Positions 420-62,780 are shown, counted from the stretch's first letter. The stretch: DNA of 64,000 bases from Mytilus galloprovincialis (GCF_965363235.1 NC_134841.1:74589723-74653722); one strand, 5' to 3'. Notes: generated from the letters alone by a model not told the origin. Numbers and translations are program-made.

Positions 420-3400
420 AACACGTCTGGTAATCGTTACACGGAATATTCTGTCGATTGACCTGTTTGGTTTTTCCTTAAGCTTTCCTTGTGTTTTAAC
501 CATCATTCATTCGATATTAAAACATCTTGCACGAAGCCCTACAAACTCAGCAATCATTTGACCACCAAATGTATCTTCAAACACACCAATCACTATTTTC
601 TGACGTTGTTTGGAATTCAACGATAGGTTGTCCGTACAATAGTTAAATGTGTTAAACTTGTTTTGAATTTGAGATATCATGTCTTTAGAAAGTCGTCAGT
701 TTGAATTTAATAGACTAAATTATCAGTGTCGGTAAACAATAGCCGAACTTTGTTCCCGAAGGTTTCATAATGAATGTCGTACATTAAAATCTTTGAAATG
801 TCTAAGATGCATGCTCCCAAATACACAGGCTTGTCAAATTTGAGTTCGGTTTTCTTCATGTGTACGATTGTTTTTCGGTAGTCACTTATTTTGTATTCAT
901 CCGTTTAAGTATGTTTACCATGGTATTTCCAAACTTTTGTTCATCAGTTTGAAAAAAAATGTTTTTTCAGACACGGTGCGAGTGGTGGTTATGGTTATAA
1001 GGTTAATATTCAGGTAAATGCAAATTTCAAGCCTACATGATTATTTAAATTTTAACACATGATACACTTTTGTTAATACCAACACATTGGAATAACTCTG
1101 TTTCAAATTTCTATTATAAAGAACATACTTTACACCTTTGTCGGATTTGAATACGGTACCAACTTATGAAACTTGTTCATTTCTGTTTTCATGTAAAAAC
1201 AATAAATCGTTAAGCTTATCGTAAAGGTCGACTGAGTAACCAAATCCCATTCAATTATGTACCCAACCTCATCCTCCTCTTTCCACATGTCAATGACTTC
1301 AAAGTCGTCCACCAATTCAAAACCCTTGTTGGCTACGGTTCTGACATGGCCAACACATACTCATAGTTAGTACTACTAGTTAAGTATTCCAAAAAAGTCA
1401 TTGGGAAGGTTGTGGAGGGTCGCATTCACTCATGTATTTGTTGTTGGCCACCCAATGTCGATGGCTTATTTGAGCACAGTCCCCTCTCTTGCTTATTCAA
1501 ACATAAGTAACATGTCTGGGTCGTGTAACAATTGTGATCTAACTTTGCTTATATTTAACGCCGAATCGTAAGCTATCACTGATGACGTGTAATAATGAAA
1601 TACGTCAAGGCCCGTAAGCTTTTAAACAAATGACACTAGTTTTCAAATATATCATCCAATTGCACAACGTCTCCTTTCAAGTACACATCATGGTAGTCTT
1701 GTAATGTTTGACAATTAAATCTAGTTAACACATGTTTTGCTTGAGCATAGTCAGCCACACTAATGTGTTCATTGTTAAGTCGGTTGTAAAACTGGTCAGC
1801 AGATGGTAGTTGTATTTTCTTCTTCTTATGAGGACCCTTCATGGAATCGTAAGGGTACATACTTTGTTTATCATTCATTCATAGTGCTCCTAAAAACAAG
1901 ACTTCAATACCTTACATTGGTTCAGCTTTAAATGGCTAAATATATAAAATAACATAAACATACATTTATCAATGAATAGAATTTCTTACCCATCAACTTT
2001 CTTAGAAAGACTACTGTTCTCTTCATCGGTATTTGGAATGCAGTTCACTTCAAAAACAGTATAACCCAATGCCTTTACGAACAAGTAGGCGTCATACATT
2101 GTTAAGTTGTAAAATATATTGGAAACATAGGTAAGTAAGTTTAAGTTACATTAATTATCTGTGCTGCATCACGATACTTACGATCAAGTGGTCGCGATCA
2201 CGCACTTTGCCTTCCCCTAATTCATCATCGCACATGTGACAACGTGAACTCGCTTTAAAACATTGGGGATCTTCTTCAGTCATCACCAGGTCTTTTTATC
2301 CATGTACATGTCTGCAATGTCCTACATCTCCTTTTCCTTACAAGCCACACATATATAACCATGTCACCCCCTGGGTACACCTTTGTTTCTTTGAATTTTC
2401 CAACATCATACCTGACTCGGTAGTAAAAAAACCTGAAGGTGTATTTTGTTGGTAAGCATTCGTGTAAGCTTTTGACTTGTCAGGTTGGCATGTGTCTATA
2501 TGTTATAAGTAACATTAAACGTCAGCATAATTAACATAAGGAAATCGCATTTTACGTTTACAGTTGTATATCTTATAAAGGTATCTTCTTCAGGTATCTT
2601 GATTTTCACTCCAGCCCTCTAATCCCAATACTATAAATTTTCGTCTAAAATGTCTTCTCTCAAACAGTGCTTCTTACACTTTCGACAAAAAATACTTTAA
2701 CATTGTAGATGACACTTGGGCTCTGAACAAATGTGATAAACTTTTTTTATCTAGCAGTAATGTTGTTTAGTTACATGTCTGCGTGGGTTCTGTCCTTTCC
2801 GATGTTCTTTGAAATTTTTCTCGGGTTCTTCATTTTTTTAATCGTTGTTGTTTATTTCAACACCATCATACCCAAACACGTTAATAGAAAAGCTAGTTCT
2901 AGTATTTAACCTTTAAAATTGGTCAATGTGTTTCAAACACATGGAGGAAACTAAACCCTTCTGGTTCAACTCATTTTCACGTTTTTTTTTTATATTGGCG
3001 CACTTTGTGTGTACTTTTCTGAGTCACCTCTTTATGTGTACTTTTGATAACACAGCTCACGTTAATAATGGCCTTCTTTTGTGCTAGTTTTACTGAAAGG
3101 CGAATGTAAGATTTACCCTTCAGGGGTACAATTTATCCATATGAAGGTGTAATTTTACAATATGTCTTCACGGTCACCCCCTTCAATCACGCATGCAATG
3201 TGCTATACTTTCATAACTTTTAACGTTAGTTAAGTGTCTTAGTTGGTTGATTCAGTAAAAATAACTTCAGTTGATCTAAAAAATGGAACGAATTTCACCT
3301 GTTGCGGGGTTGGTTTTTACCAACTCTACTCGAAGCATCTACTGTACCTTCGATGCCTTCTTAACTTTTGTGCTTCTGACATTTTACTAATCAAATGTAT

Positions 3401-22100: not shown

Positions 22101-25100
22101 TGAAATGAGCTAGGTCCGGTTCGGAACTTTGCCGTAGGGATATGTCGAGGAGTACCGAATGTGTGGTTGATATGGAAAATACGTAAATTGGCAACTTTGA
22201 ACCTCTGTGGTGGCCAGACGGGCCCGGATCCCAGAAAAATATTTAAGTGGGGAATAGCTTGGGTCAATACCTTTAAAATGAGCTAGGTCCGGTTCGGAAC
22301 TTTGCCGTTGGTATATGCCGAAAAGTACCGAATGTATGCATATGGTTAATACGGAAAATTACGTTATGGGGCACCTTTGAACCTCTGTGGTGGCCAGACG
22401 GGCCCGGATCCCAGAAACATATTTAAGTGGCAAATAGCTTGGATCAATACCTTTGAAATGAGCTAGGTCCGGTTCGGAACTTTGCCGTAGGGATATGTCG
22501 AGGAGTACCGAATGTGTGGTTGATATGGAAAATACGTAAATGGGCATTTTGAAGCTCTGTGGTGGCCAGACGGGCCCGGATCCCAGAAAAATATTTAAGT
22601 GGCAAATAGCTTGGATCAATACCTTTGAAATGAGCTAGGTCCGGTTCGGAACTTTGCCGTAGGGATATGTCGAGGAGTACCGAATGTGTGGTTGATATGG
22701 AAAATACGTAAATTGGCAACTTTGAACCTCTGTGGTGGCCAGACGGGCCCGGATCCCAGAAAAATATTTAAGTGGGGAATAGCTTGGGTCAATACCTTTA
22801 AAATGAGCTAGGTCCGGTTCGGAACTTTGCCGTTGGTATATGCCGAAAAGTACCGAATGTATGCATATAGTTAATACGGAAAATTACGTTATGGGGCACC
22901 TTTGAACCTCTGTGGTGGCCAGACGGGCCCGGATCCCAGAAACATATTTAAGTGGCAAATAGCTTGGATCAATACCTTTGAAATGAGCTAGGTCCGGTTC
23001 GGAACTTTGCCGTAGGGATATGTCGAGGAGTACCGAATGTGTGGTTGATATGGAAAATACGTAAATGGGCATTTTGAAGCTCTGTGGTGGCCAGACGGGC
23101 CCGGATCCCAGAAAAATATTTAAGTGGCAAATAGCTTGGATCAATACCTTTGAAATGAGCTAGGTCCGGTTCGGAACTTTGCCGTAGGGATATGTCGAGG
23201 AGTACCGAATGTGTGGTTGATATGGAAAATACGTAAATTGGCAACTTTGAACCTCTGTGGTGGCCAGACGGGCCCGGATCCCAGAAAAATATTTAAGTGG
23301 GGAATAGCTTGGGTCAATACCTTTAAAATGAGCTAGGTCCGGTTCGGAACTTTGCCGTTGGTATATGCCGAAAAGTACCGAATGTATGCATATGGTTAAT
23401 ACGGAAAATTACGTTATGGGGCACCTTTGAACCTCTGTGGTGGCCAGACGGGCCCGGATCCCAGAAACATATTTAAGTGGCAAATAGCTTGGATCAATAC
23501 CTTTGAAATGAGCTAGGTCCGGTTCGGAACTTTGCCGTAGGGATATGTCGAGGAGTACCGAATGTGTGGTTGATATGGAAAATACGTAAATGGGCATTTT
23601 GAAGCTCTGTGGTGGCCAGACGGGCCCGGATCCCAGAAAAATATTTAAGTGGCAAATAGCTTGGATCAATACCTTTGAAATGAGCTAGGTCCGGTTCGGA
23701 ACTTTGCCGTAGGGATATGTCGAGGAGTACCGAATGTGTGGTTGATATGGAAAATACGTAAATTGGCAACTTTGAACCTCTGTGGTGGCCAGACGGGCCC
23801 GGATCCCAGAAAAATATTTAAGTGGGGAATAGCTTGGGTCAATACCTTTAAAATGAGCTAGGTCCGGTTCGGAACTTTGCCGTTGGTATATGCCGAAAAG
23901 TACCGAATGTATGCATATGGTTAATACGGAAAATTACGTTATGGGGCACCTTTGAACCTCTGTGGTGGCCAGACGGGCCCGGATCCCAGAAACATATTTA
24001 AGTGGCAAATAGCTTGGATCAATACCTTTGAAATGAGCTAGGTCCGGTTCGGAACTTTGCCGTAGGGATATGTCGAGGAGTACCGAATGTGTGGTTGATA
24101 TGGAAAATACGTAAATGGGCATTTTGAAGCTCTGTGGTGGCCAGACGGGCCCGGATCCCAGAAAAATATTTAAGTGGCAAATAGCTTGGATCAATACCTT
24201 TGAAATGAGCTAGGTCCGGTTCGGAACTTTGCCGTAGGGATATGTCGAGGAGTACCGAATGTGTGGTTGATATGGAAAATACGTAAATTGGCAACTTTGA
24301 ACCTCTGTGGTGGCCAGACGGGCCCGGATCCCAGAAAAATATTTAAGTGGGGAATAGCTTGGGTCAATACCTTTAAAATGAGCTAGGTCCGGTTCGGAAC
24401 TTTGCCGTTGGTATATGCCGAAAAGTACCGAATGTATGCATATGGTTAATACGGAAAATTACGTTATGGGGCACCTTTGAACCTCTGTGGTGGCCAGACG
24501 GGCCCGGATCCCAGAAACATATTTAAGTGGCAAATAGCTTGGATCAATACCTTTGAAATGAGCTAGGTCCGGTTCGGAACTTTGCCGTAGGGATATGTCG
24601 AGGAGTACCGAATGTGTGGTTGATATGGAAAATACGTAAATGGGCATTTTGAAGCTCTGTGGTGGCCAGACGGGCCCGGATCCCAGAAAAATATTTAAGT
24701 GGCAAATAGCTTGGATCAATACCTTTGAAATGAGCTAGGTCCGGTTCGGAACTTTGCCGTAGGGATATGTCGAGGAGTACCGAATGTGTGGTTGATATGG
24801 AAAATACGTAAATTGGCAACTTTGAACCTCTGTGGTGGCCAGACGGGCCCGGATCCCAGAAAAATATTTAAGTGGGGAATAGCTTGGGTCAATACCTTTA
24901 AAATGAGCTAGGTCCGGTTCGGAACTTTGCCGTTGGTATATGCCGAAAAGTACCGAATGTATGCATATGGTTAATACGGAAAATTACGTTATGGGGCACC
25001 TTTGAACCTCTGTGGTGGCCAGACGGGCCCGGATCCCAGAAACATATTTAAGTGGCAAATAGCTTGGATCAATACCTTTGAAATGAGCTAGGTCCGGTTC

Positions 25101-28100
25101 GGAACTTTGCCGTAGGGATATGTCGAGGAGTACCGAATGTGTGGTTGATATGGAAAATACGTAAATGGGCATTTTGAAGCTCTGTGGTGGCCAGACGGGC
25201 CCGGATCCCAGAAAAATATTTAAGTGGCAAATAGCTTGGATCAATACCTTTGAAATGAGCTAGGTCCGGTTCGGAACTTTGCCGTAGGGATATGTCGAGG
25301 AGTACCGAATGTGTGGTTGATATGGAAAATACGTAAATTGGCAACTTTGAACCTCTGTGGTGGCCAGACGGGCCCGGATCCCAGAAAAATATTTAAGTGG
25401 GGAATAGCTTGGGTCAATACCTTTAAAATGAGCTAGGTCCGGTTCGGAACTTTGCCGTTGGTATATGCCGAAAAGTACCGAATGTATGCATATAGTTAAT
25501 ACGGAAAATTACGTTATGGGGCACCTTTGAACCTCTGTGGTGGCCAGACGGGCCCGGATCCCAGAAACATATTTAAGTGGCAAATAGCTTGGATCAATAC
25601 CTTTGAAATGAGCTAGGTCCGGTTCGGAACTTTGCCGTAGGGATATGTCGAGGAGTACCGAATGTGTGGTTGATATGGAAAATACGTAAATGGGCATTTT
25701 GAAGCTCTGTGGTGGCCAGACGGGCCCGGATCCCAGAAAAATATTTAAGTGGCAAATAGCTTGGATCAATACCTTTGAAATGAGCTAGGTCCGGTTCGGA
25801 ACTTTGCCGTAGGGATATGTCGAGGAGTACCGAATGTGTGGTTGATATGGAAAATACGTAAATTGGCAACTTTGAACCTCTGTGGTGGCCAGACGGGCCC
25901 GGATCCCAGAAAAATATTTAAGTGGGGAATAGCTTGGGTCAATACCTTTAAAATGAGCTAGGTCCGGTTCGGAACTTTGCCGTTGGTATATGCCGAAAAG
26001 TACCGAATGTATGCATATGGTTAATACGGAAAATTACGTTATGGGGCACCTTTGAACCTCTGTGGTGGCCAGACGGGCCCGGATCCCAGAAACATATTTA
26101 AGTGGCAAATAGCTTGGATCAATACCTTTGAAATGAGCTAGGTCCGGTTCGGAACTTTGCCGTAGGGATATGTCGAGGAGTACCGAATGTGTGGTTGATA
26201 TGGAAAATACGTAAATGGGCATTTTGAAGCTCTGTGGTGGCCAGACGGGCCCGGATCCCAGAAAAATATTTAAGTGGCAAATAGCTTGGATCAATACCTT
26301 TGAAATGAGCTAGGTCCGGTTCGGAACTTTGCCGTAGGGATATGTCGAGGAGTACCGAATGTGTGGTTGATATGGAAAATACGTAAATTGGCAACTTTGA
26401 ACCTCTGTGGTGGCCAGACGGGCCCGGATCCCAGAAAAATATTTAAGTGGGGAATAGCTTGGGTCAATACCTTTAAAATGAGCTAGGTCCGGTTCGGAAC
26501 TTTGCCGTTGGTATATGCCGAAAAGTACCGAATGTATGCATATGGTTAATACGGAAAATTACGTTATGGGGCACCTTTGAACCTCTGTGGTGGCCAGACG
26601 GGCCCGGATCCCAGAAACATATTTAAGTGGCAAATAGCTTGGATCAATACCTTTGAAATGAGCTAGGTCCGGTTCGGAACTTTGCCGTAGGGATATGTCG
26701 AGGAGTACCGAATGTGTGGTTGATATGGAAAATACGTAAATGGGCATTTTGAAGCTCTGTGGTGGCCAGACGGGCCCGGATCCCAGAAAAATATTTAAGT
26801 GGCAAATAGCTTGGATCAATACCTTTGAAATGAGCTAGGTCCGGTTCGGAACTTTGCCGTAGGGATATGTCGAGGAGTACCGAATGTGTGGTTGATATGG
26901 AAAATACGTAAATTGGCAACTTTGAACCTCTGTGGTGGCCAGACGGGCCCGGATCCCAGAAAAATATTTAAGTGGGGAATAGCTTGGGTCAATACCTTTA
27001 AAATGAGCTAGGTCCGGTTCGGAACTTTGCCGTTGGTATATGCCGAAAAGTACCGAATGTATGCATATGGTTAATACGGAAAATTACGTTATGGGGCACC
27101 TTTGAACCTCTGTGGTGGCCAGACGGGCCCGGATCCCAGAAACATATTTAAGTGGCAAATAGCTTGGATCAATACCTTTGAAATGAGCTAGGTCCGGTTC
27201 GGAACTTTGCCGTAGGGATATGTCGAGGAGTACCGAATGTGTGGTTGATATGGAAAATACGTAAATGGGCATTTTGAAGCTCTGTGGTGGCCAGACGGGC
27301 CCGGATCCCAGAAAAATATTTAAGTGGCAAATAGCTTGGATCAATACCTTTGAAATGAGCTAGGTCCGGTTCGGAACTTTGCCGTAGGGATATGTCGAGG
27401 AGTACCGAATGTGTGGTTGATATGGAAAATACGTAAATTGGCAACTTTGAACCTCTGTGGTGGCCAGACGGGCCCGGATCCCAGAAAAATATTTAAGTGG
27501 GGAATAGCTTGGGTCAATACCTTTAAAATGAGCTAGGTCCGGTTCGGAACTTTGCCGTTGGTATATGCCGAAAAGTACCGAATGTATGCATATGGTTAAT
27601 ACGGAAAATTACGTTATGGGGCACCTTTGAACCTCTGTGGTGGCCAGACGGGCCCGGATCCCAGAAACATATTTAAGTGGCAAATAGCTTGGATCAATAC
27701 CTTTGAAATGAGCTAGGTCCGGTTCGGAACTTTGCCGTAGGGATATGTCGAGGAGTACCGAATGTGTGGTTGATATGGAAAATACGTAAATGGGCATTTT
27801 GAAGCTCTGTGGTGGCCAGACGGGCCCGGATCCCAGAAAAATATTTAAGTGGCAAATAGCTTGGATCAATACCTTTGAAATGAGCTAGGTCCGGTTCGGA
27901 ACTTTGCCGTAGGGATATGTCGAGGAGTACCGAATGTGTGGTTGATATGGAAAATACGTAAATTGGCAACTTTGAACCTCTGTGGTGGCCAGACGGGCCC
28001 GGATCCCAGAAAAATATTTAAGTGGGGAATAGCTTGGGTCAATACCTTTAAAATGAGCTAGGTCCGGTTCGGAACTTTGCCGTTGGTATATGCCGAAAAG

Positions 28101-28700
28101 TACCGAATGTATGCATATGGTTAATACGGAAAATTACGTTAAGGGGCACCTTTGAACCTCTGTGTTGGCCAGACGGGCCCGGATCCCAGAAAAATATTTC
28201 AGTGGGGAATAGCTTGGGTCAATACCTTTAAAATGAGATAGGTCCGGTTTGGAACTTTGGCGTTGGTATATGCCGAAAAGTACCGAATGTGTGGTTAATA
28301 CGGAAATTGACGTTAAGGGGCACCCTTGAACCTCTGTGGTGGCCAGACGGTCCCGGATCCCAGAAAATATTTAAGTTGGTAATAGCCTTGGTCAGTACCT
28401 TTTAAAATCAGCCAGGTCCGGTTCGGAACTTTGCCGTAGGGATATGTCGAGGAATACCGAATGTATTGTTGATATAGAAAATACATGTACGTAAATGGAC
28501 AATTTTGAACCTCTGTGGTGGCCAGACAGTGCCGGTTCCCAGAAAAATTTTGAAGTGGCGAATAGCTCGGGTCAATACCTTTAAAATGAGATAGGTCAGG
28601 TTCGGAACTTTGCCGTAGAGATAAGCCTAGGATTTCCGAAAGCATGTGTGGTTAATATGAAAAGTACGTTAAGGCACACCTTTGAATCCCTATAATGGCC
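13095..28700 (-). repeat. Satellite array: 525-bp higher-order repeat (three ~175-bp monomer variants), ~30 HOR copies that are virtually identical; last ~600 bp (28100-28700) progressively degenerate
   Basis: The ORF track repeats with exact 525-nt spacing (13436, 13961, 14486 ... 27609). Monomers contain GGATCC, GGGCCC and TGGCCA sites. A single G/A variant (atatGgtt vs atatAgtt) recurs at spacings of 3-5 HORs. Confidence 0.92.
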
Positions 28701-31687
28701 AATATCTTTCATTAGTACAACACCTCCAAATATAGATAAATTAAATTGGCTTCTTATAATGCTAGTAAAAAAGAACACGAATATAAAGTGTATGGAACTT
28801 GTTTGGTAACCTTTTTTCATTGAAACAGGTTATATTTAAAGTAGGGGACGGACACAGTTTTAAACTTTAAATAAAAGAATGTTTAAAAAGGTGGACCGAG
28901 AAAAGTCTTAACTGGTGTCCCAAGTGTTAAACACTTAAGCCCAAAGGTATCGCATCAAGGATTTTACTGACGAAAAAGTACAAAGTTCTTTTTATGAACC
29001 TTAACTTAAAAGAAGGTTCAGGATTTGAACCGCATCGGTAAGGTCTGGCTAAAACAAAACAGGTGTGGGTGAAAGAGGTCTTTGTTCCATGAAAAGGGTA
29101 ACCTAAGTCCTTAAACTCTTGATTCAAACAATAAGATTTGCAGTACCAACCTTTTAGCAAGTATAGGCTTTGACAATTTGCCCAAGATTATAAAGGATAC
29201 TTTCGTTATGCGAGTATTAATGTGGTGAAGGCTTAAACATCTGGACTACGTCTTTACCAAATAATAAACCACTAACGGATTTTAATCTCCCACCAGCATG
29301 TTTTGATAGAATACACATCCTCAGACTCTCTAGATTTTCCTTGTTTTGGTCTTAAGCTTCTATTGACAACTAAAGTTTCAAGAGTTCATCAATGTTTTAT
29401 GTGTCGAGTTTTTAATCTGATTTACCTCGAGTTCTTGGTGCAGAGTGGTCTTAAACTCATCTACCTTTTTCTCGAGTTCTTTAATGACTGTATCATTATC
29501 CTTTCTCTAGTCGTTTTATATCTCTCTTTATCTGGTTACACGCGGATTGTAATTTTAATTCTAACGGTTTCGTATAGTGTTTCAATTGACGCATGACTCG
29601 TCGTTTTATTGCAGCATCCGTATTATTATTCTAAGATTTAATGTTAGTGATAGGATTGTTGTTCATGTTCAATTCTTCAAGCAATTGACTCCTATTTATT
29701 TCTCAATTTCCATAAAGTCCAAATTTGTCTGTCTTGGAAACGCAACTTCATCAAGGTTTTCCTTCAGACAACAATTGTGACAAATACAAACAAAAGTGTC
29801 CACAGACCACTGGTGCTCTTATCTGAAGTTCATCGGTGATGTAGTAGATCTTAAGTTTCAAGTAATTTACCATTACGTAAGGGGGGATTAAAGTCCGTAA
29901 GAATCAAAATACGCTTTGCTTGTTGTCGTCTTAAACTAACACGTCCAATGGGTTCCAGGTCTCATAATGGAAGAGTTAAAAGGTCATCAAACACGTCTTG
30001 CAATCGTTAAATGTAATGTTCTGTCAATTGACTTGTTTCTTCGTTCCTTTAGCTTTCCTGGTGTGTTGACCATCACCCATTCGATATTAACACATCTTGT
30101 AAGAATCCATACAAAGTTAGCCATCATTTGACCACCACATGCATACCAATCATTTTTTATTTTGTTGACGTTGGTCGGAATTCGAAAACGGGTTGTCCAT
30201 ACAATAGTTTGATGTGTCAATCTTGTTTTGAATGTGAGATATGTCTTTTTAAAAGTCGTCGGTTTAAATTTAATAGGCTTAACTATCGGTGTCGGTAAAC
30301 AATTGTCGAACTTTGTTCCCGTTGGTTTACGCACAAAGTCCAAATGAATGTCGTACATTTAAAATCTTTGAAATGTCTAAGATAATTGCTCCTTAGTACA
30401 CAGGCTTGTTAAACTTTAGTTTGGTTTTCTTTATGTTTACTACTACCATGGACTCGTTATACACCACGAATTGGTCACAGTTGGGTGTAGCTATTAGTTT
30501 CAACGGTTGCTTATCAGTAGTCATTAATATTATATTCACCCGTTAACGTGTGTTTTCCATGGTATTTTCAAACATTGAGTTGTTTATCAGTTTAAAGGAA
30601 TACTTTTCAGATACGATGCTGGCTATGATTCTAAGGTTAGTGTTCAGGTCAATGAAAATTTTAAGCCAAATTGATTGTTAAATTTTTGACACACGATGCA
30701 CTTTGGTTAATACCAACCATTGGAAACAACACTATTTCAAATTTCTAAAAAAAAAAAAATAGTAAACACATGTAGTACATGAACATAGTCAGCCACACTA
30801 ATGTGTTTATTATTAAGTCGGTCAGCAGATAGTAGTTGTGTTTTCGTCTTGTCGTAATGACCCTTCATGAAATCGTAAGATAAACATTTTATTTTTAATT
30901 ATTTATCATAAATTCATTATTCTACCTAAATCACGACTTTCATACCTTAAATTGGTTCAACTTTAAATTCTAAGCTAAATATATAAGGTGTCGGACGAAT
31001 TTAACATAAACTTACAGGAATCAATGAAAAGCATTTCTTACCGGTAATTGACAGTCTAAGTTACATTTTTTTATGTACTGCACCACGATACTTACTTGTC
31101 GAACGCTCGTGATCACGCACTTTGTCTTCACCTAATTCATCATCGCACATGTGACAATATTAACTCGCTGTAAAACATTGGGATCTTCTTCAGTCATCAC
31201 CAGGTCTTTTATCAATGTAGATGTTTGCAATCGCCTTCATTATCTCTTCCATACAAGCCACAAATCTCTGAACAATGTCTTCCAGTGAGTACACTTTTGT
31301 TTCTTTATATTCCCTATGAGCATACTGGACACGGTAGTAAAACCAGAAGGTGTATTTTGTTAGTTAACATCCGTGTAAGCTTTTAGTTTGTCAGGTTGGC
31401 AAGTGTCTATCTGTTCTGAGCTACATTGAATGTCAGCATAAATAACATAAGGAAATCGCATTTTACGTTGGTACTATGTTGTAAGATATTGTAATGGTAT
31501 CTTCTTCTGGAATTTCGATTTTCACTCCATTCATCTTATCACAATACATTAAATGTTCGTCTAAAAAGTCCTCACTTTAACAATGATTGAAACATCTTCG
31601 ACAAAAACACTTTACCATTGTGGGATGACACTTGGGGACTTAACAAATGTGATAATAGTTATCAAAGTACCAGGATTATAATTTTGT

Positions 31688-31733
31688 ACGCCAGACGCGC
31701 GTTTCGTCTACATAAGACTCATCAGTGACGCTC
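31688..31733 (-). ncRNA. Hammerhead ribozyme, minimal type-I topology (copy 1)
   Basis: Minus strand: GAGCGUCA-CUGAUGA-GUC-UUAUGUA-GAC-GAAAC-GCGC-GUC|UGGCGU. Conserved CUGAUGA and GAAA cores are present. Stem II is GUC/GAC. Short helix III is AC/GU. GUC cleavage triplet. Helix I is GCGUCA with UGGCGU (6 bp including 2 G-U pairs). Confidence 0.6.
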
Positions 31734-32039
31734 AGATCAAAATATTTATAAAGCCAAACAAGTACAAAGTTGAAGAGCATTTAGGATCCAAAATTCCAAA
31801 AAGTTGTGCCAAATACGGCTAAGGTAATCTATTCCTGGGATAAGAAAATCCTTAGTTTTTCGAAAAATTCAGTTTTGTAAACGGGAAATTTATAAAAATG
31901 ACCACAATATTGATATTCATGTCAACACCAAAGTGTTGACTACTGGGCTGGTAATACCCGCGGGGACGAAACGTCCACCAGCAGTGGCATCGACCCAGTG
32001 GTGTATATAGTTATCAAAGTACCAGGATTATAATTTTGT

Positions 32040-32085
32040 ACGCCAGACGAGCGTTTCGTCTACTTAAGACTCATCAGTGACGCTC
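32040..32085 (-). ncRNA. Hammerhead ribozyme (copy 2; stem II loop UUAAGUA, helix III loop GCUC)
   Basis: Same core as copy 1, 352 nt away. Compensatory or neutral changes are confined to loops. Confidence 0.55.
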
Positions 32086-32391
32086 ATATCAAAATATTTA
32101 TAAAGCCAAACAAGTACAAAGTTGAAGAGCATTTAGGATCCAAAATTCCAAAAAGTTGTGCCAAATACGGCTAAGGTAATCTATTCCTGGGATAAGAAAA
32201 TCCTTAGTTTTTCGAAAAATTCAGTTTTGTAAACGGGAAATTTATAAAAATGAACACAATATTGATATTCATGTCAACACCGAAGTGTTGACTACTGGGC
32301 TGGTAATACCCTCGGGGACGAAACATCCACCAGCAGTGGCATCGACCCAGTGGTGTAAATAGTTATCAAAGTACCAGGATTATAATTTTGT

Positions 32392-32437
32392 ACGCCAGAC
32401 GCGCGTTTCGTCTACATAAGACTCATCAGTGACGCTC
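32392..32437 (-). ncRNA. Hammerhead ribozyme (copy 3, identical to copy 1)
   Basis: gccagacgcgcgtttcgtctacataagactcatcagtgacgctc on the plus strand is the reverse complement of the ribozyme. Confidence 0.55.
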
Positions 32438-34269
32438 ATATCAAAATATTTATAAAGCCAAACAAGTACAAACTTTTTATCCAACAGTAATGATGTTTAG
32501 TAGCATTGGTTAAATACAACGTGTTTGTGTGAGTTCTATTCTTTTTGATGTTTTTTGAATTTTTAACGGGTACTTTTTTGTATTTTTTGTATTGACTCAC
32601 TCGTAAAATGTACTTTTCTGATCCACCTATTCATGATGTGATTGTGAGAATACAGCTCACGTTAATAATGGCCTTCTTCTGTGCTAGTTTTACTGAAAGG
32701 CGTAGGTAAGACTCAAACATCAGGGATACAATTTATTCATATGAAGGTGTACTTCTACAATATGACTAACGTTCACTCACTTCCATCACGCATGCAAGTT
32801 GCTATGCTTTCTTTTGCCTTTTCTATCATTACTGTTAGTTCAGTGTCTTAGTTGGTTGATTCAGTAATACTAACTTGCCATGCTTGAGTTGACCTTAAAA
32901 GTGGAATCACTGTCACCTGTTGCAAGGTTTTTTTTACCAACTGTACTAGAAGCACCTTCGATGCCTACTTTAAGTTGTCTTCTGAAATTTTACGAATCAA
33001 ATGTATGTAAAGCACTTCGACTTGCCTTAAAAATGAATTAACAAATGGTTCAATAAACACTGTAGTTCTTTTCTACCATCTTTCATCTTAATAACAGGTT
33101 TCTTAGCTATGTCTTGTTGCAGTCCTTTTTCCTTTTTCTTGATCTATATGTAAGGTATACCACGTTTCTTTGCTTTTAGTATTAATTCATTTTTAGTGAA
33201 CACTTCTGTATTGGGTAACACTTGATGCGTGTTGTCTTCAATAAGCTTTACCAACACGTCTTTTGGGTTTATACTATATCCTTTTAACCCCAAATCCTTT
33301 GCCATTCGATGTAATTAGTTTACCGTTATTTGTAAATGACCCGCTGGTATTGTCTTTATAAACCTAGCGCAACCTCTTTATTATGTATAGCATGTATATT
33401 AACTCACAATCTAGGCGTACCCGGTATGTTTTTGTTTGTTAATGCCATTGTTTATTTAATACTTACACACATGTGTCTTTTATGATTATTTTTTTTTTTC
33501 AATTTTACACCCCTAACCACCACTTGTAATTTTTTTAATCTAATGTTTACTAGATGTGAAAAGAAAAATAATGACACGTACTACTACGCGGTTTTCTGTC
33601 TAATAAGGGTATAGGCAGTCGTACTTCTGATGAACGGTCTTTCCAACGTTCTTGTTTCGTAATACAACCCACTACAAGCCCACACCTTACTTGTTACCCG
33701 TTTTATTGACTTCAAGATTAGTAGGTAAGTATCACAAATTATTTCATCCCCACTTGTAGTGTCAATAATTTGGTTCACCTCACTTGTTGGCAGGTCCTTC
33801 CATTTTTGTTTTTCTTTTGTGTCAAAGGTATTCAGATCAATAAAATAATATTGATTATAAGATGCCTTCATAATCCTAATACTTATAAAAATATTCCTAT
33901 ATTCTGGTTTTTTTTTTCATTTTAAAAAACACCACCCCGTACTCCTATTCAAATTCTAACCCTAACACCCCTTACCCTAACACACCTTACTCTAAAACCT
34001 TAAACACCTTTTAAATCAGACTATAACTTTTACACCATGATGCTTATTTACCTGTATAATGTTACGTCATAACTTTTACTTACTAATATGACGTCACTTT
34101 TTTCACTGTCACCTTCCTACTTTCACGTTCACTGTTAATTACTAAAATTGAAAGTGTTGCAGCATTCTCTATTCTACACCACTGGTATGAACCCAGGCTA
34201 TTCACTACTTTTTTTATATAATCCAGAGCCATCTGCATTACAGTGGTTCCGAAATTCATATAACGTATT

Positions 34270-37214: not shown

Positions 37215-40200
37215 CTTTACGGTAATTTTCGAACCTTTCCAAGCTCATTTCAAAGGTATTGACCCAAGCTATTCCCCACTTAAATATTTTTCTGGGATCC
37301 GGGCCCGTCTGGCCACCACAGAGGTTCAAAGTTGCCAATTTACGTATTTTCCATATCAACCACACATTCGGTACTCCTCGACATATCCCTACGGCAAAGT
37401 TCCGAACCGGACCTAGCTCATTTCAAAGGTATTGATCCAAGCTATTTGCCAGTTAAATATTTTTCTGGGATCCGGGCCCGTCTGGCCACCACAGAGGTTC
37501 AAAGTTGCCCATTTACGTATTTTCCATATCAACAACACATTCGGTACTCCTCGACATATCCCTACGGCAAAGTTCCGAACCGGACCTAGCTCATTTTAAA
37601 GGCATTGACCCAAGCTATTCCCACTTAAATATTTTTCTGGGATCCGGGCCCGTCTGGCCACCACAGAGGTTCAAAGGTGCCCCTTAACGTAATTTTCCGT
37701 ATTAACCATATGCATACATTCGGTACTTTTCGGCATATACCAACGGCAAAGTTCCGAACCGGACCTAGCTCATTTTAAAGGTATTGACCCAAGCTATTCC
37801 CCACTTAAATATTTTTCTGGGATCCGGGCCCGTCTGGCCACCACAGAGGTTCAAAGTTGCCAATTTACGTATTTTCCATATCAACCACACATTCGGTACT
37901 CCTCGACATATCCCTACGGCAAAGTTCCGAACCGGACCTAGCTCATTTCAAAGGTATTGATCCAAGCTATTTGCCAGTTAAATATTTTTCTGGGATCCGG
38001 GCCCGTCTGGCCACCACAGAGGTTCAAAGTTGCCCATTTACGTATTTTCCATATCAACAACACATTCGGTACTCCTCGACATATCCCTACGGCAAAGTTC
38101 CGAACCGGACCTAGCTCATTTTAAAGGCATTGACCCAAGCTATTCCCCACTTAAATATTTTTCTGGGATCCGGGCCCGTCTGGCCACCACAGAGGTTCAA
38201 AGGTGCCCCTTAACGTAATTTTCCGTATTAACCATATGCATACATTCGGTACTTTTCGGCATATACCAACGGCAAAGTTCCGAACCGGACCTAGCTCATT
38301 TTAAAGGTATTGACCCAAGCTATTCCCCACTTAAATATTTTTCTGGGATCCGGGCCCGTCTGGCCACCACAGAGGTTCAAAGTTGCCAATTTACGTATTT
38401 TCCATATCAACCACACATTCGGTACTCCTCGACATATCCCTACGGCAAAGTTCCGAACCGGACCTAGCTCATTTCAAAGGTATTGATCCAAGCTATTTGC
38501 CAGTTAAATATTTTTCTGGGATCCGGGCCCGTCTGGCCACCACAGAGGTTCAAAGTTGCCCATTTACGTATTTTCCATATCAACAACACATTCGGTACTC
38601 CTCGACATATCCCTACGGCAAAGTTCCGAACCGGACCTAGCTCATTTTAAAGGCATTGACCCAAGCTATTCCCCACTTAAATATTTTTCTGGGATCCGGG
38701 ACCGTCTGGCCACCACAGAGGTTCAAAGGTGCCCCTTAACGTAATTTTCCGTATTAACCATATGCATACATTCGGTACTTTTCGGCATATACCAACGGCA
38801 AAGTTCCGAACCGGACCTAGCTCATTTTAAAGGTATTGACCCAAGCTATTCCCCACTTAAATATTTTTCTGGGATCCGGGCCCGTCTGGCCACCACAGAG
38901 GTTCAAAGTTGCCAATTTACGTATTTTCCATATCAACCACACATTCGGTACTCCTCGACATATCCCTACGGCAAAGTTCCGAACCGGACCTAGCTCATTT
39001 CAAAGGTATTGATCCAAGCTATTTGCCAGTTAAATATTTTTCTGGGATCCGGGCCCGTCTGGCCACCACAGAGGTTCAAAGTTGCCCATTTACGTATTTT
39101 CCATATCAACAACACATTCGGTACTCCTCGACATATCCCTACGGCAAAGTTCCGAACCGGACCTAGCTCATTTTAAAGGCATTGACCCAAGCTATTCCCC
39201 ACTTAAATATTTTTCTGGGATCCGGGCCCGTCTGGCCACCACAGAGGTTCAAAGGTGCCCCTTAACGTAATTTTCCGTATTAACCATATGCATACATTCG
39301 GTACTTTTCGGCATATACCAACGGCAAAGTTCCGAACCGGACCTAGCTCATTTTAAAGGTATTGACCCAAGCTATTCCCCACTTAAATATTTTTCTGGGA
39401 TCCGGGCCCGTCTGGCCACCACAGAGGTTCAAAGTTGCCAATTTACGTATTTTCCATATCAACCACACATTCGGTACTCCTCGACATATCCCTACGGCAA
39501 AGTTCCGAACCGGACCTAGCTCATTTCAAAGGTATTGATCCAAGCTATTTGCCAGTTAAATATTTTTCTGGGATCCGGGCCCGTCTGGCCACCACAGAGG
39601 TTCAAAGTTGCCCATTTACGTATTTTCCATATCAACAACACATTCGGTACTCCTCGACATATCCCTACGGCAAAGTTCCGAACCGGACCTAGCTCATTTT
39701 AAAGGCATTGACCCAAGCTATTCCCCACTTAAATATTTTTCTGGGATCCGGGCCCGTCTGGCCACCACAGAGGTTCAAAGGTGCCCCTTAACGTAATTTT
39801 CCGTATTAACCATATGCATACATTCGGTACTTTTCGGCATATACCAACGGCAAAGTTCCGAACCGGACCTAGCTCATTTTAAAGGTATTGACCCAAGCTA
39901 TTCCCCACTTAAATATTTTTCTGGGATCCGGGCCCGTCTGGCCACCACAGAGGTTCAAAGTTGCCAATTTACGTATTTTCCATATCAACCACACATTCGG
40001 TACTCCTCGACATATCCCTACGGCAAAGTTCCGAACCGGACCTAGCTCATTTCAAAGGTATTGATCCAAGCTATTTGCCAGTTAAATATTTTTCTGGGAT
40101 CCGGGCCCGTCTGGCCACCACAGAGGTTCAAAGTTGCCCATTTACGTATTTTCCATATCAACAACACATTCGGTACTCCTCGACATATCCCTACGGCAAA

Positions 40201-54665: not shown

Positions 54666-56438
54666 AGGAAAGGGTGGTTATCGATTTTCATTCTTAATCA
54701 ATCAATTCATAGAACCGTTAACAGACATGTTGGCTAAAGAACTAGTTCGACCGGTTTGTTTTTGTATTTTAAATTCATGGTACACTAAGCAAATAAGAAA
54801 ATATATATATATTTTTTTTTGGTAACTTTTATCCCGACCACATGATTTAGCTGTAACCATTGAAACAATCCGTTCGATAAAAATGTCATGAGAGGGAAAA
54901 TAACTTAAACACACATCTCTCGAAAAGAAGACAAGTAGAGATCTCTAAAATGGTTCTAATCACTACATAAAATTATAAATGAAACACTGTACAAAACATA
55001 GGTATGGGCTTTGATTATTGTTGAAGGCCGTACGGTGACCTATAGTTGTTAATTTCTGTGTCTCTTGTGTAGAGTTGTCTCATTGGCAATCATATCACAT
55101 CTTCTTTTTTTAAATTATCGCATCTTTTTACTCTCTGAAATAAAGTGTAAGTGTTCTCGCTTGTATGTCTATTTGCAAAAGTACAGCTAATACAACTTCG
55201 CAATATGCGACATATTGTTCTGAATTCATAAGATGTAAATTGCTTCTACTTGTATTTTTTCCCTTGATTGTATTTGTAATGTCAATAATTGCTTCATTCC
55301 ATACAGTCCTCATTATTTCTGGTTGTATTAGTTTCATATCCCCATAACAGTTTAATATTATTTTTGTCATATCTCTATTAACTGTAGTAAGTAAATAAGA
55401 TGCGAGATATATCAAAGGACCATTCAAACTCACAAGTAGAACTTTTAAAACCGAAAACGCCATGGCTAAAAAAGAAAAAGACAAACAGCAAACTACAAAA
55501 CACAAAACACAACATAGAAAACTAAAGACTGAGCAAAACGAACCCAAACAAAAACTGGGGGGTGATCTCAGGTGCTCCGAATTGGTAAGCAGGTCCTGCT
55601 CCACAAGTAAGTGTCATATTTCAATAAAAGACTTATTAAAAAGAGATATAGTTACGATACTGTTGTCAAGTCATAAAAGATGGCATACTTGACTTTAATA
55701 TTGATTCACTTATAGGGCTTTGCATCGGAAATAAACACATTTATTCTAAAACCAGTTGTTGGCATGATACGGGTTATCATCATTGTTCTTCTCAAATGAA
55801 CAATCATACATGTAATGATGGTATGATGCATATTCATATGGTGAAGACATAATCTTTCAATCAGTTTAATTGGGGTCTGGAGCTGGCATGTCAGTAACTG
55901 CTAGAAGTCCTTAGTGAAATTATGTATCATTATCAGTTTGTTTAGTTTCTTTTGTTACCTTGTTACCTATTCTGACATCGGACTCGGACTTCTTTTAAAC
56001 TGAGTTATACTGTGCGTTTGTTTAGAGGGAGGGTTAAGATCTTAAAAAAACATGTTTAACCCCGCCGCATTTTTGCGCCTGTCCCACGTCAGGAACCTCA
56101 GGTCTTTGTTAGTCTTGTGTGATTTTTAATTTTAGTTTCTTTTATATATTTCGGAGAAAAGAATGGCGTCCATTACCACTGAACTAAAACACATTTTTGT
56201 TTAGGGGCCAGCTGAAGCACGCCTCCGGGTGCTGGATTTTCTCACTGTATTGAAGACCCATTGGTGGCCATCGGCTGTTTTCTCCTCTTTGGTAGGGTTA
56301 TTGTTTCTTTGACATATCCCCCTTTCCCATTCTCAATTTTAAATGTAACAAAAAAATCAGCACTCAGCAACGGATGTTAAGTCCTCAATGCTCTTAAACA
56401 TAGTTAATTATTTGGTCTGCTTAATTTTTTGGCTTCGA

Positions 56439-56482
56439 GAATCACTGATGAGTCTTTTGTGGACAAAACGCTCGTCTGGCTT
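56439..56482 (+). ncRNA. Degenerate solo hammerhead-ribozyme relic (G12 to A, weakened helix I); probably inactive
   Basis: GAAUCA-CUGAUGA-GUC-UUUUGUG-GAC-AAAAC-GCUC-GUC|UGGCUU. Same architecture and same downstream caaaattataa as the 31655-32473 units. The catalytic GAAA is changed to AAAA. Confidence 0.45.
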
Positions 56483-58389
56483 TCAAAATTATAAGACTGA
56501 TGTCTTTGTTGACGTTGCAGGTGCGCTTGACTCCAATCTTAATTAAATAAGATAGTCAAGTTTTCAGACCGAAGGTTGGCGATTCTCTCCGACACTCCGT
56601 CTTCCTCCACTGATAAAACTGACGACCATGAAATAGCACAACTGTGCTGAAAGAAGCATTAAACACCAATCAATCAATCATAGAAATGATAATACTATTA
56701 TTTTTTTATTCATAATTTTTATAACAATAAGAAGCTTTATTTCTTTATTGAATATTTCATTAAAGAGACTTCGTAGGTTCTGGTTTCTAAGACAAATAAA
56801 AAATCTCAAATCATCATACAGTTTGCCTCAGGTTGAACTGTGACAAATTTGTTACACCCACACCCAGATAACACTTCCAATATCTGGTGTGGTGTTGAGA
56901 GAGCTGTAGCCATTGAAAATCAAGCACTGTTCAGTTTTAAAGACAAATGCTGTACAATCGGTTCCATGATGTAGACATAAGTAAGCACAGTAAATCCTTG
57001 TTCTGGAATACTCGGTTAGATAAGGAAGAGTAGTTGGGATGGAATCTGTCTTGTCAATATGAAAATACCTCGAACCTGTTAAATATTAAAAATACCATAT
57101 ATAGGTGGATAATGTAGTAAATATTTCTATCGGAAAACAACTGTAGTTCATACAAAATATAAACTCTCTTCACAAATGTTTTTTTTTCTTTCTATGTATT
57201 CCCCTTCTTTATTAAACTTATAGTGAACATAAAAATAATTAATCATCTAAAAATATTCTAAATATATTCTATAGTGACTATTAATTATATAAACCAATAA
57301 TTTAACAAATTCAAAAGGAAAAGATGCAAAATAAAACATATAACAACAAGAATGTGTCCCCAGTACACGAATGCCCCACTCGCACTATCATTTTCTATGT
57401 TCAGTGGACCGTGAAATTGGGGTAAAATCTCTAATTTGGCATTAAAATTAAAAAGATCATATCATAGGGAACATGTATACTAAGTTTGAAGTCGATTGGA
57501 CTTCAACTTCATCAAAAACTACCTTGACCAAAAACTTTAACCTGAAGCGGGACAGACGGACGGACGAACGAACGAACGAACGAACGAACGGACGGACGGA
57601 CGGACAGACGACCGACCGAACGAACGGACACACAGACCAGAAAACATAATGCCCCTCTACTATCGTAGGTGGGGCATAAAAATATCCACAATCTTGTTGA
57701 CTCCTTGTTTTGTCATCTCTTTATTTTTTCCTCCGGTGGAATGTTAAGGTTGTATGTTATTTTACTTACTGTTTGTACCCCCAACATGCCATTGGCCAAT
57801 ATTTCCCGTCGGTGTGCTTACTCCTGCTGTTAAACCTTCAACTATATCTTGGGATATGGGATAATGGTTCGCCGTTGGATCTATTTTAAGTAATTATATG
57901 TTTTATTATATGTGATGTATTATAATCGGATAGATATGATGAGAAAGGGTTAATTTTAATGAAGCAGTAGTCTTAACTAAATGGTTAAAACAATTTTTAT
58001 TTATCCCAACACACGGCCCCCACACTCACCTATATTCTTGCCTCCACAAAATGATCATATTACAAAGTTATCTAGTGTAGATTCTCGTTTTTCACATTTA
58101 TGGTAAAATGAGGAAACCCCATACATATTCGTACAAAAAAAGCACCCACACTCAAACATGAGAATATCAGTTTCATTGTTAATTTAGCTTTATCCATATG
58201 TAAACATAGAATATTCTCGCTTCTAAAATATTCAAAATTGAAACACTCGATAAGGTCGACGAAGGTTTTATCTACACACAAAAAAATCATATTTGTGACA
58301 ATAAGTACAGCTATACTATATTTATATTTTTTCTTTAAATTTCTTTTTTGAAACCATCATTTTGATATATCAAGAAAAAACATACATAC

Positions 58390-62039: not shown

Positions 62040-62780
62040 CTAACACAAACAAACATAGTTTACTTATACATTGCATGTTAATCTAGTTTCAGTGCCACCC
62101 CAAGCATAATATGCTTAAAACTTTCACAATGATTATTTGAGGAAATTCATATAACTGTTTCATATCTCATGTGGCACAGAGAAACTTTTTATTGTCTGAT
62201 GCAAAATCTATTTAAATAAACTTATATAATATACAAAAGCCAATTTTGTGTCTTATATTCGTTTTTTTAATTAATTTCTCGTGACGCACCACTTCAAATA
62301 CTATCAATCTTTTGATAAATAAAACAAAAATAAAATAAAAATGCAAATTCAACTGAAGAGCGTCTAAGAATTTTCAATCCATAAATATAATATCTTAGCT
62401 GTATTCCGCTTAACTTTTCAAAAATGTTGGCCCTCAATGCTCTTCGTACTTTATTTGAACTTTTGATTTATTATTCTAGCAGGCACTGCATGATGAATCT
62501 TTTTCAACGAAAATGCGCGTCTTTAGTACAAAATTATAAGCCAGGGTCCGAAGCTACCAAAAGACATGTCATAAGATATATCTTAGGACATATCTAATGA
62601 TTCTCTTATGACTATCCTAGGACATATATCAGACCTCGCCTCGAAGCTGTCTTAGAATGATCTTAGCAAAGACATTCTAAAACTGCTGCAAGTTCTTTAA
62701 ATTTTCAAATATTAACATGGATTTATGGAAAAAAATCATGTGAATGTAGTGTTGACTGATCTTAACTTGAAAATACATAC

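Follow-up and report, generated by a model that had tools for sequence, protein, structure and literature searches.

A probable retrozyme insertion with three hammerhead ribozymes in Mytilus galloprovincialis, and the termini of related copies

We analysed a stretch of 64,000 nucleotides of Mytilus galloprovincialis DNA (hereafter the window) and found in it an array that is very probably a genomic insertion of a Mytilus non-LTR retrozyme, i.e., a non-autonomous element with type I hammerhead ribozymes (HHRs), made of one 5'-truncated copy and then two full copies. The element was already known: it is an ordinary genomic copy of a published Mytilus retrozyme family and not a new kind, because that family has been described and experimentally tested in Mytilus. 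As a discovery the array matters little, the family having been catalogued, cloned and cleaved in vitro and its circular RNA shown in the same genus. As an insertion it is cleanly defined: the corresponding empty site is present, the boundaries are exact, the microhomology is only 2 nt and there is no target-site duplication.

The array and its insertion site

Tandem Repeats Finder (TRF) reported a 352-bp period at 31654-32472, with 2.3 copies, 97% matches and no indels, which confirmed the tandem 352-bp repeat placed at 31655-32473 by the first-pass annotation. The array was non-coding and AT-rich, its longest ORF being 40 aa, and the GC content of the unit was 37.5-38.6%. The only terminal repeats detected by TRF and self-BLAST were the tandem units themselves, with no LTR. 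The 3' boundary is uncertain by 2 nt (31654-31656) because a TT is common to the array and the target. The components of the array are:

31654..32472, minus strand: entire probable retrozyme insertion, 2.3 head-to-tail non-coding 352-bp units (TRF, self-BLAST and empty-site alignment)
32358..32472, minus strand: first copy, 5'-truncated, with hammerhead 1 (unit positions 278-352 plus 1-40)
32006..32357, minus strand: full 352-nt copy with hammerhead 2 (unit position 41 round to 40)
31654..32005, minus strand: second full 352-nt copy with hammerhead 3, ending at the family's common 3' terminus ...GAUAACUAUU

The array lies in a block (29981-33304) that is colinear with 411-3682 at 75-81% identity. 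When 31655-32472 was excised in silico, the flanks aligned unbroken to 2739/2740, and the paralog is an empty site because this alignment runs straight over the junction. The absence of the insertion from the paralogous locus at about 2740, and its recent arrival in one copy of the duplicated block, had both been proposed earlier and both hold. No target-site duplication was evident at any copy, and at 2739/2740 there was merely a 2-3-nt A/T ambiguity. Two more copies, both decayed, were found elsewhere in the window, the first of them ending near the family's usual unit position:

2739..2740, no strand assigned: empty target site in the paralogous block (GTGATAAAC/TTTTTTTATC), from the flank alignment
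56382..56512, plus strand: old solo copy, 5'-truncated, ~78% identical, with a dead core (GAAAC -> AAAAC)
62360..62545, plus strand: older, heavily decayed copy with the CUGAUGA box and helix II destroyed

The genomic setting had been called unusual, a view we do not share because the family has ~5000 copies per genome, and further copies occur both in this window (two, decayed) and in other Mytilus DNA (about a dozen in 151 kb). An exact-protein look-up gave no match for the window ORF, nor for P0011. The neighbouring ORF was 95% identical to a M. galloprovincialis protein and 92% to a M. edulis protein, and the region of the window from 6 to 16 kb showed 93-99% identity to M. edulis and M. 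galloprovincialis assemblies.

Hammerhead ribozymes and RNA folding

On the minus strand all three units read GAGCGUCA-CUGAUGA-GUC-(UUAUGUA or UUAAGUA)-GAC-GAAAC-GC(G/U)C-GUC|UGGCGU, so the motif had been read exactly in each of them. Type I hammerheads are recognised by CUGANGA, GAAA and an RUH cleavage triplet, with helix I open and helices II and III closed; CUGAUGA, GAAA and GUC were present in every unit, in agreement with the earlier statement that all the conserved positions are there. The three ribozymes are:

32392..32435, minus strand: hammerhead 1, intact core, RF00163 33 bits, predicted cleavage after GUC, 32398|32397
32040..32083, minus strand: hammerhead 2, intact core, RF00163 31 bits, predicted cleavage 32046|32045; UUAAGUA in loop 2 and GCUC in the loop of helix III
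31688..31731, minus strand: hammerhead 3, intact core, RF00163 33 bits, predicted cleavage 31694|31693

The Rfam model RF00163 (Hammerhead_1) matched full length on the minus strand in all three units, with an E-value of 4e-6 in a 1.1-kb region and of 2.4e-4 to 1.1e-3 in the whole window. The curated gathering score of this model is 34 bits and the matches were detected only with permissive scans; a default gathering scan of the window listed no match because the scores (31-33 bits) are 1-3 bits under that value. By E-value the matches are significant, and the Rfam gathering threshold overlooks a bona fide mussel hammerhead family by 1-3 bits. The pattern CTGATGA-N6-30-GAAAC occurred three times in the window, always in the array (0.15 expected by chance).

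The layout of the ribozyme comprises a helix I of 6 bp, a helix II of 3-4 bp and a helix III of 2 bp (A-U, C-G) with the palindromic loop GCGC, matching the 6-bp helix I and very short helix III described before. Cervera & de la Pena (2014, PMC4209133) give this layout as canonical for type I HHRs of metazoans, and the min-HHR of Penelope-like elements (PLEs) has no helix III or loop 3, a helix II of 7-8 bp and a helix I of 4-5 bp (PMC4209133). By each of these features (no helix III, long helix II, short helix I) the array ribozymes depart from the min-HHR; the mussel ribozyme is a canonical metazoan type I HHR, and its earlier assignment to a PLE-type minimal architecture was mistaken. The related proposal that it works as a dimer is plausible, since the palindrome ACGCGCGU pairs intermolecularly in the cofold, but for the mussel ribozyme it is not an established mode of action, given that Mg353 (see below) self-cleaves in vitro as a monomeric construct. 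Units 1 and 2 differed at 8 of 352 positions, two of them within the ribozyme (unit positions 334 and 348), one in loop 2 and the other in the helix III loop. The differences therefore do fall in loops within the ribozyme, as had been noted, but the ribozyme holds two of the eight, too few to demonstrate structural constraint.

Nearest-neighbour folding of the isolated 44-mer gave -3.4 kcal/mol for the hammerhead fold vs -9.2 for the MFE; the canonical fold is not the MFE, and thermodynamic support for the hammerhead was nil. The 352-nt circle was no stabler than shuffled sequence (z = -0.8 to -1.4). Over 12 copies, part of them chosen with a search pattern in which helices II and III are preset, the ribozyme helix pairs were nearly invariant, with two double changes, a result equalled by 40-49 of 500 shuffles; covariation adds little because the helices hardly vary. 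A conserved structured segment was predicted downstream of the ribozyme in both full copies:

32273..32351, minus strand: conserved structured segment downstream of the ribozyme (RNAalifold, six copies)
31921..31999, minus strand: repeat of this segment in the second full copy

This segment has 31 pairs, two of them compensated between subfamilies (RNAalifold, six copies), and consists of a branched stem (ACUGGG.../...CCCAGU, at its apex GGAYG-UUU-CGUCC) and of a hairpin, GUCAACAC-UUCG-GUGUUGAC.

The Mg353 family and other known systems

The 352-nt unit was colinear end to end with the mussel retrozyme Mg353, whose sequence was taken from the supplement of PMC7229834, and 285 of 338 aligned bases were identical (84%). 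This full-length homology supports the first reading of the array as a bivalve retrozyme-like repeat with HHRs. The two belong to the same genus and share unit size (352 vs 353 nt), tandem arrangement, low GC and lack of coding capacity. The array differs in belonging to a sister subfamily: its ribozyme departs from that of Mg353 at a single loop-2 base (UUAUGUA in the array, UUUUGUA in Mg353), and the subfamilies diverge in loop 1, upper helix I (3' strand), and positions 7-45. The window locus itself is absent from the paper's descriptions (PMC7229834). Two mussel HHR families (2880 and 1681 motifs) have been reported to differ at loops 1 and 2 and at upper helix I (PMC7229834), and the M. 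galloprovincialis retrozyme, for which HHR families A and B are distinguished, is present in ~5000 copies, with repeats of 350-390 bp (Cervera & de la Pena, NAR 2020, PMC7229834). The monomeric Mg353 construct self-cleaves in vitro at ~0.1 per min, and Mg353 was cloned as a circular RNA of unit size; retrozyme circular RNA is abundant in gonad and mantle, circularisation is by RtcB, and in the published model the primed circular RNA is copied into tandem cDNA (PMC7229834). By analogy with Mg353, self-cleavage and circular RNA would be expected from the window array.

Metazoan non-LTR retrozymes are described as tandem repeats of ~170-400 bp, from dimers to multimers, each with a type I hammerhead (Cervera & de la Pena 2020); further traits are a GC content below 45-50%, non-coding sequence, absence of LTR, primer-binding site and polypurine tract, dispersed mobile copies, and expression as linear and circular RNA of monomer length, which has been published for the mussel family. 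The array consists of 2.3 repeats of 352 bp with three hammerheads, and its GC content and short ORFs (see above) lie within this description. Dispersal is seen in the empty paralog and in independent copies with unrelated flanks, which were found in the window itself, in contigs from metagenomes and in the genomes of three Mytilus species.

The hammerheads of Schistosoma Sm-alpha and of newt/axolotl satellite 2, on which RF00163 is based, also lie in tandem repeats and have the same core, helix layout (6/4/2 bp) and palindromic 4-nt loop as the array, whose stretch CUGAUGAGUC...GACGAAACGCGCGUC matches the Rfam consensus at nearly every base. However, beyond the ribozyme the units show no sequence relationship, and the loop 1/loop 2 tertiary-contact nucleotides are mostly missing in the mussel form (PMC7229834). 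Axolotl ribozymes also require dimers for good activity, whereas the mussel construct cleaves as a monomer at the rate given above. Plant LTR retrozymes (Cervera, Urbina & de la Pena 2016, PMC4918200) are alike in that flanking hammerheads release a non-coding RNA, which is circularised and then retrotransposed by a helper element. Their type III hammerheads in LTRs, primer-binding site, polypurine tract, 4-bp target-site duplications, ~700 nt between ribozymes and GC >55% all lack a counterpart in the array, in which the hammerhead is type I and neither LTRs nor a target-site duplication were found. PLEs (Craig et al. 2021, PMC8557442; PMC4209133) share the insertion anatomy, including a hammerhead near the 3' end, but the array has no RT/GIY-YIG ORF and its ribozyme is canonical; the 30-40-bp 'tail' and the inverted 5' copies of PLE type were not seen.

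Termini of related copies, alternative origins and proposed spread

Relatives of the unit were found in six marine-metagenome contigs, and M. edulis, M. galloprovincialis and M. trossulus sequence totalling 151 kb contained ~12. In ~14 independent copies from several Mytilus species the 3' ends lay 40-46 nt past the cleavage site and the 5' ends were variable. The former were located at unit positions 40, 41, 42, 42, 43, 43, 43, 44 and 46 (in Mg353-type copies at 47-53, the equivalent site in that subfamily), and the latter at 14, 20, 53, 164, 190, 238, 260, 278, 305, 316, 322 and 335. Lengths of independent copies ranged continuously, including 348, 380, 382, 434, 818 and >843 nt; the fractional unit was always 5' and the identical 3' end was always retained.

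These data allow us to weigh other origins of the array. That an ordinary tandem repeat resembles a hammerhead by chance would agree with the Rfam score under the gathering threshold and with the weak thermodynamic fold, but all core positions are present, the E-value reaches 2.4e-4 at window scale, the motif was observed three times where 0.15 was expected, and a single base separates the ribozyme from that of Mg353, for which self-cleavage in vitro has been published. Moreover, copies from at least three Mytilus species keep the core, although the remainder of the unit diverges to ~80%; we regard chance resemblance as effectively refuted and its probability as negligible. The array could also have come from an autonomous PLE, truncated at its 5' end, whose terminal repeat (pLTR) region it would represent, and not be an independent retrozyme, given that PLEs have hammerheads in their terminal repeats and integrate as partial tandems in which the 5' end is truncated and the 3' end fixed (PMC8557442; PMC4209133), that Xenopus retrozymes are reported as sister to PLE terminal repeats, and that short solo copies (49-206 nt) are indistinguishable from such fragments. 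We consider this origin highly improbable: the 352-nt unit returns to its own start two times with no ORF longer than 40 aa, it is colinear over its whole length with an element cloned as a circular RNA of the same size, and its ribozyme has a canonical helix III. An ORF for reverse transcriptase plus GIY-YIG endonuclease, the mark of an autonomous PLE, was not found in the window, where neither of the two ORFs of at least 130 aa was similar to reverse transcriptase, GIY-YIG or another endonuclease.

An origin that is unlikely, though a good deal less so, is that one unit or slightly more was inserted and then expanded in place to 2.3 copies in the manner of satellites, through unequal crossing-over or slippage during replication, and not by insertion of a multimeric cDNA. 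Local growth is consistent with the 8 of 352 positions at which the units differ, because of which they would have diverged in place, and with a 2026 preprint which proposes that PLE-derived terminal sequences amplify locally into tandem repeats; the window gives no dating of the duplication relative to the insertion. On the other side, unequal crossing-over alters copy number in whole units, whereas the continuous copy lengths, the 5' fractional unit and the constant 3' end are expected if a template, circular or multimeric, is copied over varying lengths. The insertion is also common to samples, since one other contig (L005) has the 3' junction of the window.

The multimeric insertion of a retrozyme being the preferred reading, the termini give roughly an even chance that mussel retrozymes have a defined linear 3' terminus (...GAUAACUAUUUAC) 40-46 nt past the cleavage site and insert as 5'-truncated, more-than-unit head-to-tail copies. 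Such a terminus would imply that reverse transcription starts at one fixed site of the circular or multimeric RNA and not at the self-cleaved end. This pattern resembles the target-primed reverse transcription of PLEs, whose insertions are often truncated at the 5' end but have a defined 3' end and form partial tandems, head to tail (PMC8557442; PMC4209133). A limited search of the retrozyme literature found no statement of a fixed 3' terminus; if true, it offers a sequence-level handle on how animal retrozymes are copied into DNA and on the identity of the helper element that recognises them. Together with the variable 5' truncation, it bears on which reverse transcriptase mobilises animal retrozymes and on where copying starts.

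Following the published Mg353 experiments, transcripts spanning at least two units would self-cleave after GUC (32398|32397, 32046|32045 and 31694|31693) and free linear RNAs of 352 nt; a host tRNA ligase of the RtcB type would close these into abundant circular RNA. We infer that an autonomous element, a PLE being the likeliest, may supply the enzyme that reverse-transcribes the circular or multimeric RNA. Copying would begin at one set position of the template, 40-46 nt downstream of where the ribozyme cleaves, and its extent would vary; for the window array it would have gone round more than two times. A fixed start with variable copying would then yield head-to-tail cDNA truncated at the 5' end.

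Scans of genome contigs and viral contigs with GACGAAACGCGCGTCTGGCG gave only chance matches in GC-rich bacterial or viral DNA, with neither a CUGAUGA box nor similarity to the unit. The copy in L005 was rejected as an independent one: it is the insertion of the window, because the 3' junction and 140 bp of flank are shared. Three older copies (L013:5169-5428, L016:5058-5298 and L014:12303-12447) have homologous 5' flanks and were considered as parts of a longer, possibly autonomous element, an idea that was abandoned. They are one ancient insertion duplicated with a TRIM-like gene family, because the flanks are shared on both sides, and were excluded from the count of independent copies.

The 352-bp array and its hammerhead motifs

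Tandem Repeats Finder delimited at 31654-32472 an array with a period of 352 bp, 2.3 copies, 97% matches and zero indels. The minus strand of all three units carried GAGCGUCA CUGAUGA GUC (UUAUGUA or UUAAGUA) GAC GAAAC GC(G/U)C GUC | UGGCGU, i.e., the very string that a first-pass annotation had read by eye. A pattern scan for CTGATGA-N6-30-GAAAC returned three sites in 64 kb, all of them in the array (chance expectation 0.15). The covariance-model check proposed in the same annotation gave a divided answer. An Rfam scan of the window at default settings reported no hammerhead entries; with permissive filters, one full-length match to Hammerhead_1 (gathering score 34 bits) was found in each unit.

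Full-length matches to Hammerhead_1 (RF00163) in the window
32392-32435, minus strand, 33 bits
32040-32083, minus strand, 31 bits
31688-31731, minus strand, 33 bits

With E-values of 4e-6 in a local 1.1-kb search and of 2.4e-4 to 1.1e-3 over the whole window, these matches are significant, yet their scores lie 1-3 bits short of the curated cut-off. Cleavage is predicted after GUC at 32398|32397, 32046|32045 and 31694|31693, sites that bound two whole 352-nt monomers, and the circular junction at the unit cleavage site would read ...ACGCGCGUC|UGGCGUACAAAAUUAUAAUCC. Unit positions are counted here from the first base after that site, and units are numbered along the minus strand; variants specific to the subfamily or the locus fall at unit positions 40, 73, 86, 116, 144, 311, 334 and 348.

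Helix I had 6 bp (G.U, C-G, G-C, U.G, C-G, A-U) and is possibly extended by two further pairs past an A.A mismatch; helix II was GUC(U)/(A)GAC, and just the two pairs A-U and C-G made up helix III, with the palindrome GCGC as its loop. This is the architecture of the canonical metazoan type I hammerhead (Cervera & de la Pena 2014, PMC4209133). The min-HHR of Penelope-like elements (PLEs), in contrast, lacks helix III and has a helix II of 7-8 bp (PMC4209133), so the earlier label of a minimal, Penelope-like form was slightly off. Short palindromic helix III motifs in tandem repeats have been argued to act as dimers (PMC4209133), a mode of action also assumed in the first pass. A two-copy cofold, where ACGCGCGU paired intermolecularly over 8 bp, is consistent with it, but the mussel ribozyme may not need dimers, since a monomeric construct of Mg353, a published M. 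galloprovincialis retrozyme clone, self-cleaves in vitro (PMC7229834). The loop variant GCUC, present in unit 2 and in a relic at 56.4 kb, would introduce central mismatches into a dimeric helix III.

Thermodynamics and covariation added little support for the ribozyme. The isolated 44-mer had a canonical fold of -3.4 kcal/mol versus a minimum free energy of -9.2 kcal/mol, and the 352-nt circle did not exceed shuffled sequence in stability (z = -0.8 to -1.4). Over 12 copies, 91% of helix cells were paired and the pairs were nearly invariant, with only two double changes, within the range of shuffles. Conservation was also seen downstream of the ribozyme (unit positions 47-125), in a branched stem and a hairpin capped by UUCG; between subfamilies, two of their pairs showed compensatory changes.

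Family membership and insertion site

The sequence of Mg353, cloned from genomic DNA (Cervera & de la Pena, Nucleic Acids Res 2020, supplement, PMC7229834), aligned end to end with the window unit, 285 of 338 aligned bases being identical (84%), and its ribozyme was one loop-2 base apart from hammerheads 1 and 3. The M. galloprovincialis genome has about 5000 type I hammerheads, and the mussel motifs form two families of 2880 and 1681 whose differences are confined to loops 1 and 2 and upper helix I (PMC7229834); the window subfamily departed from Mg353 at these same places. The mussel repeats measure 350-390 bp, self-cleave co-transcriptionally at about 0.1 per min and are circularised as monomers by the RtcB ligase, and the circular RNA is plentiful in gonad and mantle (PMC7229834). 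At the level of sequence, the array shows all testable hallmarks of metazoan non-LTR retrozymes, namely tandem units bearing type I hammerheads, a GC content of 37.5-38.6%, a longest ORF of 40 aa, no LTRs and dispersed copies. These features and the homology to Mg353 support the retrozyme interpretation of the first-pass annotation. Because its kind, family and genus have all been published, the array is a member of an already known family.

The segments 29981-33304 and 411-3682 were colinear paralogous blocks of 75-81% identity. When 31655-32472 was excised, the flanks aligned uninterrupted across the junction to an empty site at 2739/2740, as expected of the discrete insertion proposed earlier. 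The empty site read GTGATAAAC|TTTTTTTATC and the filled site GTGATAA[TAGTTATC...GTAC]AAACTTTTTATCC, so that just 2-3 A/T bases of the boundary were ambiguous; comparison of the two sites revealed no target-site duplication at the array. With units 97% alike and blocks about 80% alike, the array is, on sequence divergence, younger than the block duplication. The insertion is common to at least one other mussel-derived sample, since a marine metagenome contig (ORXM01079405, positions 1-364) shared the exact 3' junction of the retrozyme together with 140 bp of its flank, at about 97% identity. Similarity of this contig to the window ended entirely at the point equivalent to 31514, which may reflect structural variation, the existence of a third paralogue, or chimerism in an assembly of low coverage.

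The setting had been called unusual but is not: two further decayed solo copies, both 5'-truncated and on the plus strand, lay in the window, and other Mytilus DNA (151 kb) yielded about a dozen copies. At 56382-56512 the core was inactivated (GAAAC to AAAAC) and at 62360-62545 the CUGAUGA box was destroyed; two metagenome copies also had dead cores (CUGAUUA and CUGAUCA), all as expected of decaying transposon copies. An old relic resembling the retrozyme, which spans unit positions 104 to about 14 at 72-78% identity, was located upstream of two TRIM-like paralogues (comparison sequences L013:5169-5428 and L016:5058-5298) and just downstream of a third (L014:12303-12447). Its flanks were homologous on either side, and by this sequence evidence it represents one ancient insertion, duplicated along with the gene family.

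Termini of the copies and the proposed copying mechanism

Termini were compared among the window, six metagenome contigs found by hammerhead pattern, and the 151 kb of M. edulis, M. galloprovincialis and M. trossulus DNA around TRIM-like paralogues, which involved no hammerhead selection. Independent copies had their 3' ends at unit positions 40, 41, 42, 42, 43, 43, 43, 44 and 46, and Mg353-type copies ended at the homologous site (47-53); all these ends directly preceded a conserved ACCACUGGGUCG block. The exception was a copy in comparison sequence L012, ending at position 233, that looks rearranged. The 5' ends, in turn, fell at 14, 20, 53, 164, 190, 238, 260, 278, 305, 316, 322 and 335, and copy lengths were continuous from about 50 to >843 nt (348, 380, 382 and 434 nt among them). 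The window array consisted of a 115-nt 5'-truncated copy and two full copies, none of its termini being at the cleavage site. Two single-unit M. trossulus copies (L017:7876-8257 and L017:17638-18020) started at 14 and 20 and ended at 40 and 43, so that about 25 nt (CCTGGTAYCTTTGATAACTATT) recur directly at both termini of each copy. This repeat may be equivalent to the 30-40-bp "tail" reported for PLE insertions, or else a leading copy cut very short by 5' truncation.

Insertions of PLEs and their non-autonomous derivatives likewise bear the signature of a constant 3' end, 5' truncation of variable extent and head-to-tail copies longer than a unit (PMC8557442, PMC4209133), and the pattern fits a 2026 preprint whose authors argue for an origin of animal retrozymes from the terminal repeats of PLEs. 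Experiments on the near-identical Mg353 suggest that transcripts with at least two ribozymes would self-cleave, that host tRNA ligase would close the 352-nt monomer and that the circle would accumulate. For the integration step, the authors of PMC7229834 proposed that a non-LTR element, e.g., a PLE, supplies the reverse transcriptase by which primed circular RNA is converted to tandem cDNA. The termini suggest that the template would be circular or multimeric RNA, on which reverse transcription would begin at one set position, 40-46 nt 3' of the cleavage site, and halt at varying distances from it. Among the window's ORFs of at least 130 aa, none encoded a reverse transcriptase. This terminal pattern, with roughly 14 copies behind it, is the only possibly new point.

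Local amplification of one inserted unit by unequal exchange could have made the array, but we consider this unlikely; it leaves unexplained the constant 5'-side place of the fractional unit across the family. That the array is a truncated autonomous PLE is highly improbable, given that its unit closes upon itself with no ORF in it and runs colinear to a circular RNA that has been cloned. A fortuitous resemblance to a hammerhead is in effect ruled out. Copying from a fixed start on circular or multimeric RNA is the reading we prefer.

Neighbouring features of the window

Arrays of a 172/173-bp satellite occupied 13098-28686, 37242-44695 and 4051-4724, GGGCCC (ApaI) sites recurring once per unit (87 for about 89 units). 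The two larger arrays (15.6 kb and 7.5 kb), mutually inverted and about 92% identical, flanked the 8.5-kb segment with the retrozyme, and the small array at 4 kb, beside the paralogous block, had the orientation of that at 37-44 kb. The satellite's higher-order period of 353 bp (TRF) is unrelated to the 352-bp retrozyme. We presume the satellite to be the classical Mytilus ApaI satellite; a literature search for confirmation of this identity found none.

The minus-strand ORF at 10313-11269 (318 aa) belonged to a B-box/TRIM-like (NHL-repeat) gene family that is large in Mytilus and was 95% identical to a M. galloprovincialis protein and 92% to a M. edulis protein, which places the window in the Mytilus edulis complex; the region at 6-16 kb was 93-99% identical to assemblies of both species. 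About 600 bp from this ORF, a 90-nt near-perfect palindrome (11839-11928; stem of about 40 bp, -66 kcal/mol) matched the mir-4773 and mir-4433 precursor models on both strands, far under their gathering scores, and may represent an element of the foldback or MITE type. A 33-bp minisatellite of 40 copies (89% matches) was located at 58579-59896.
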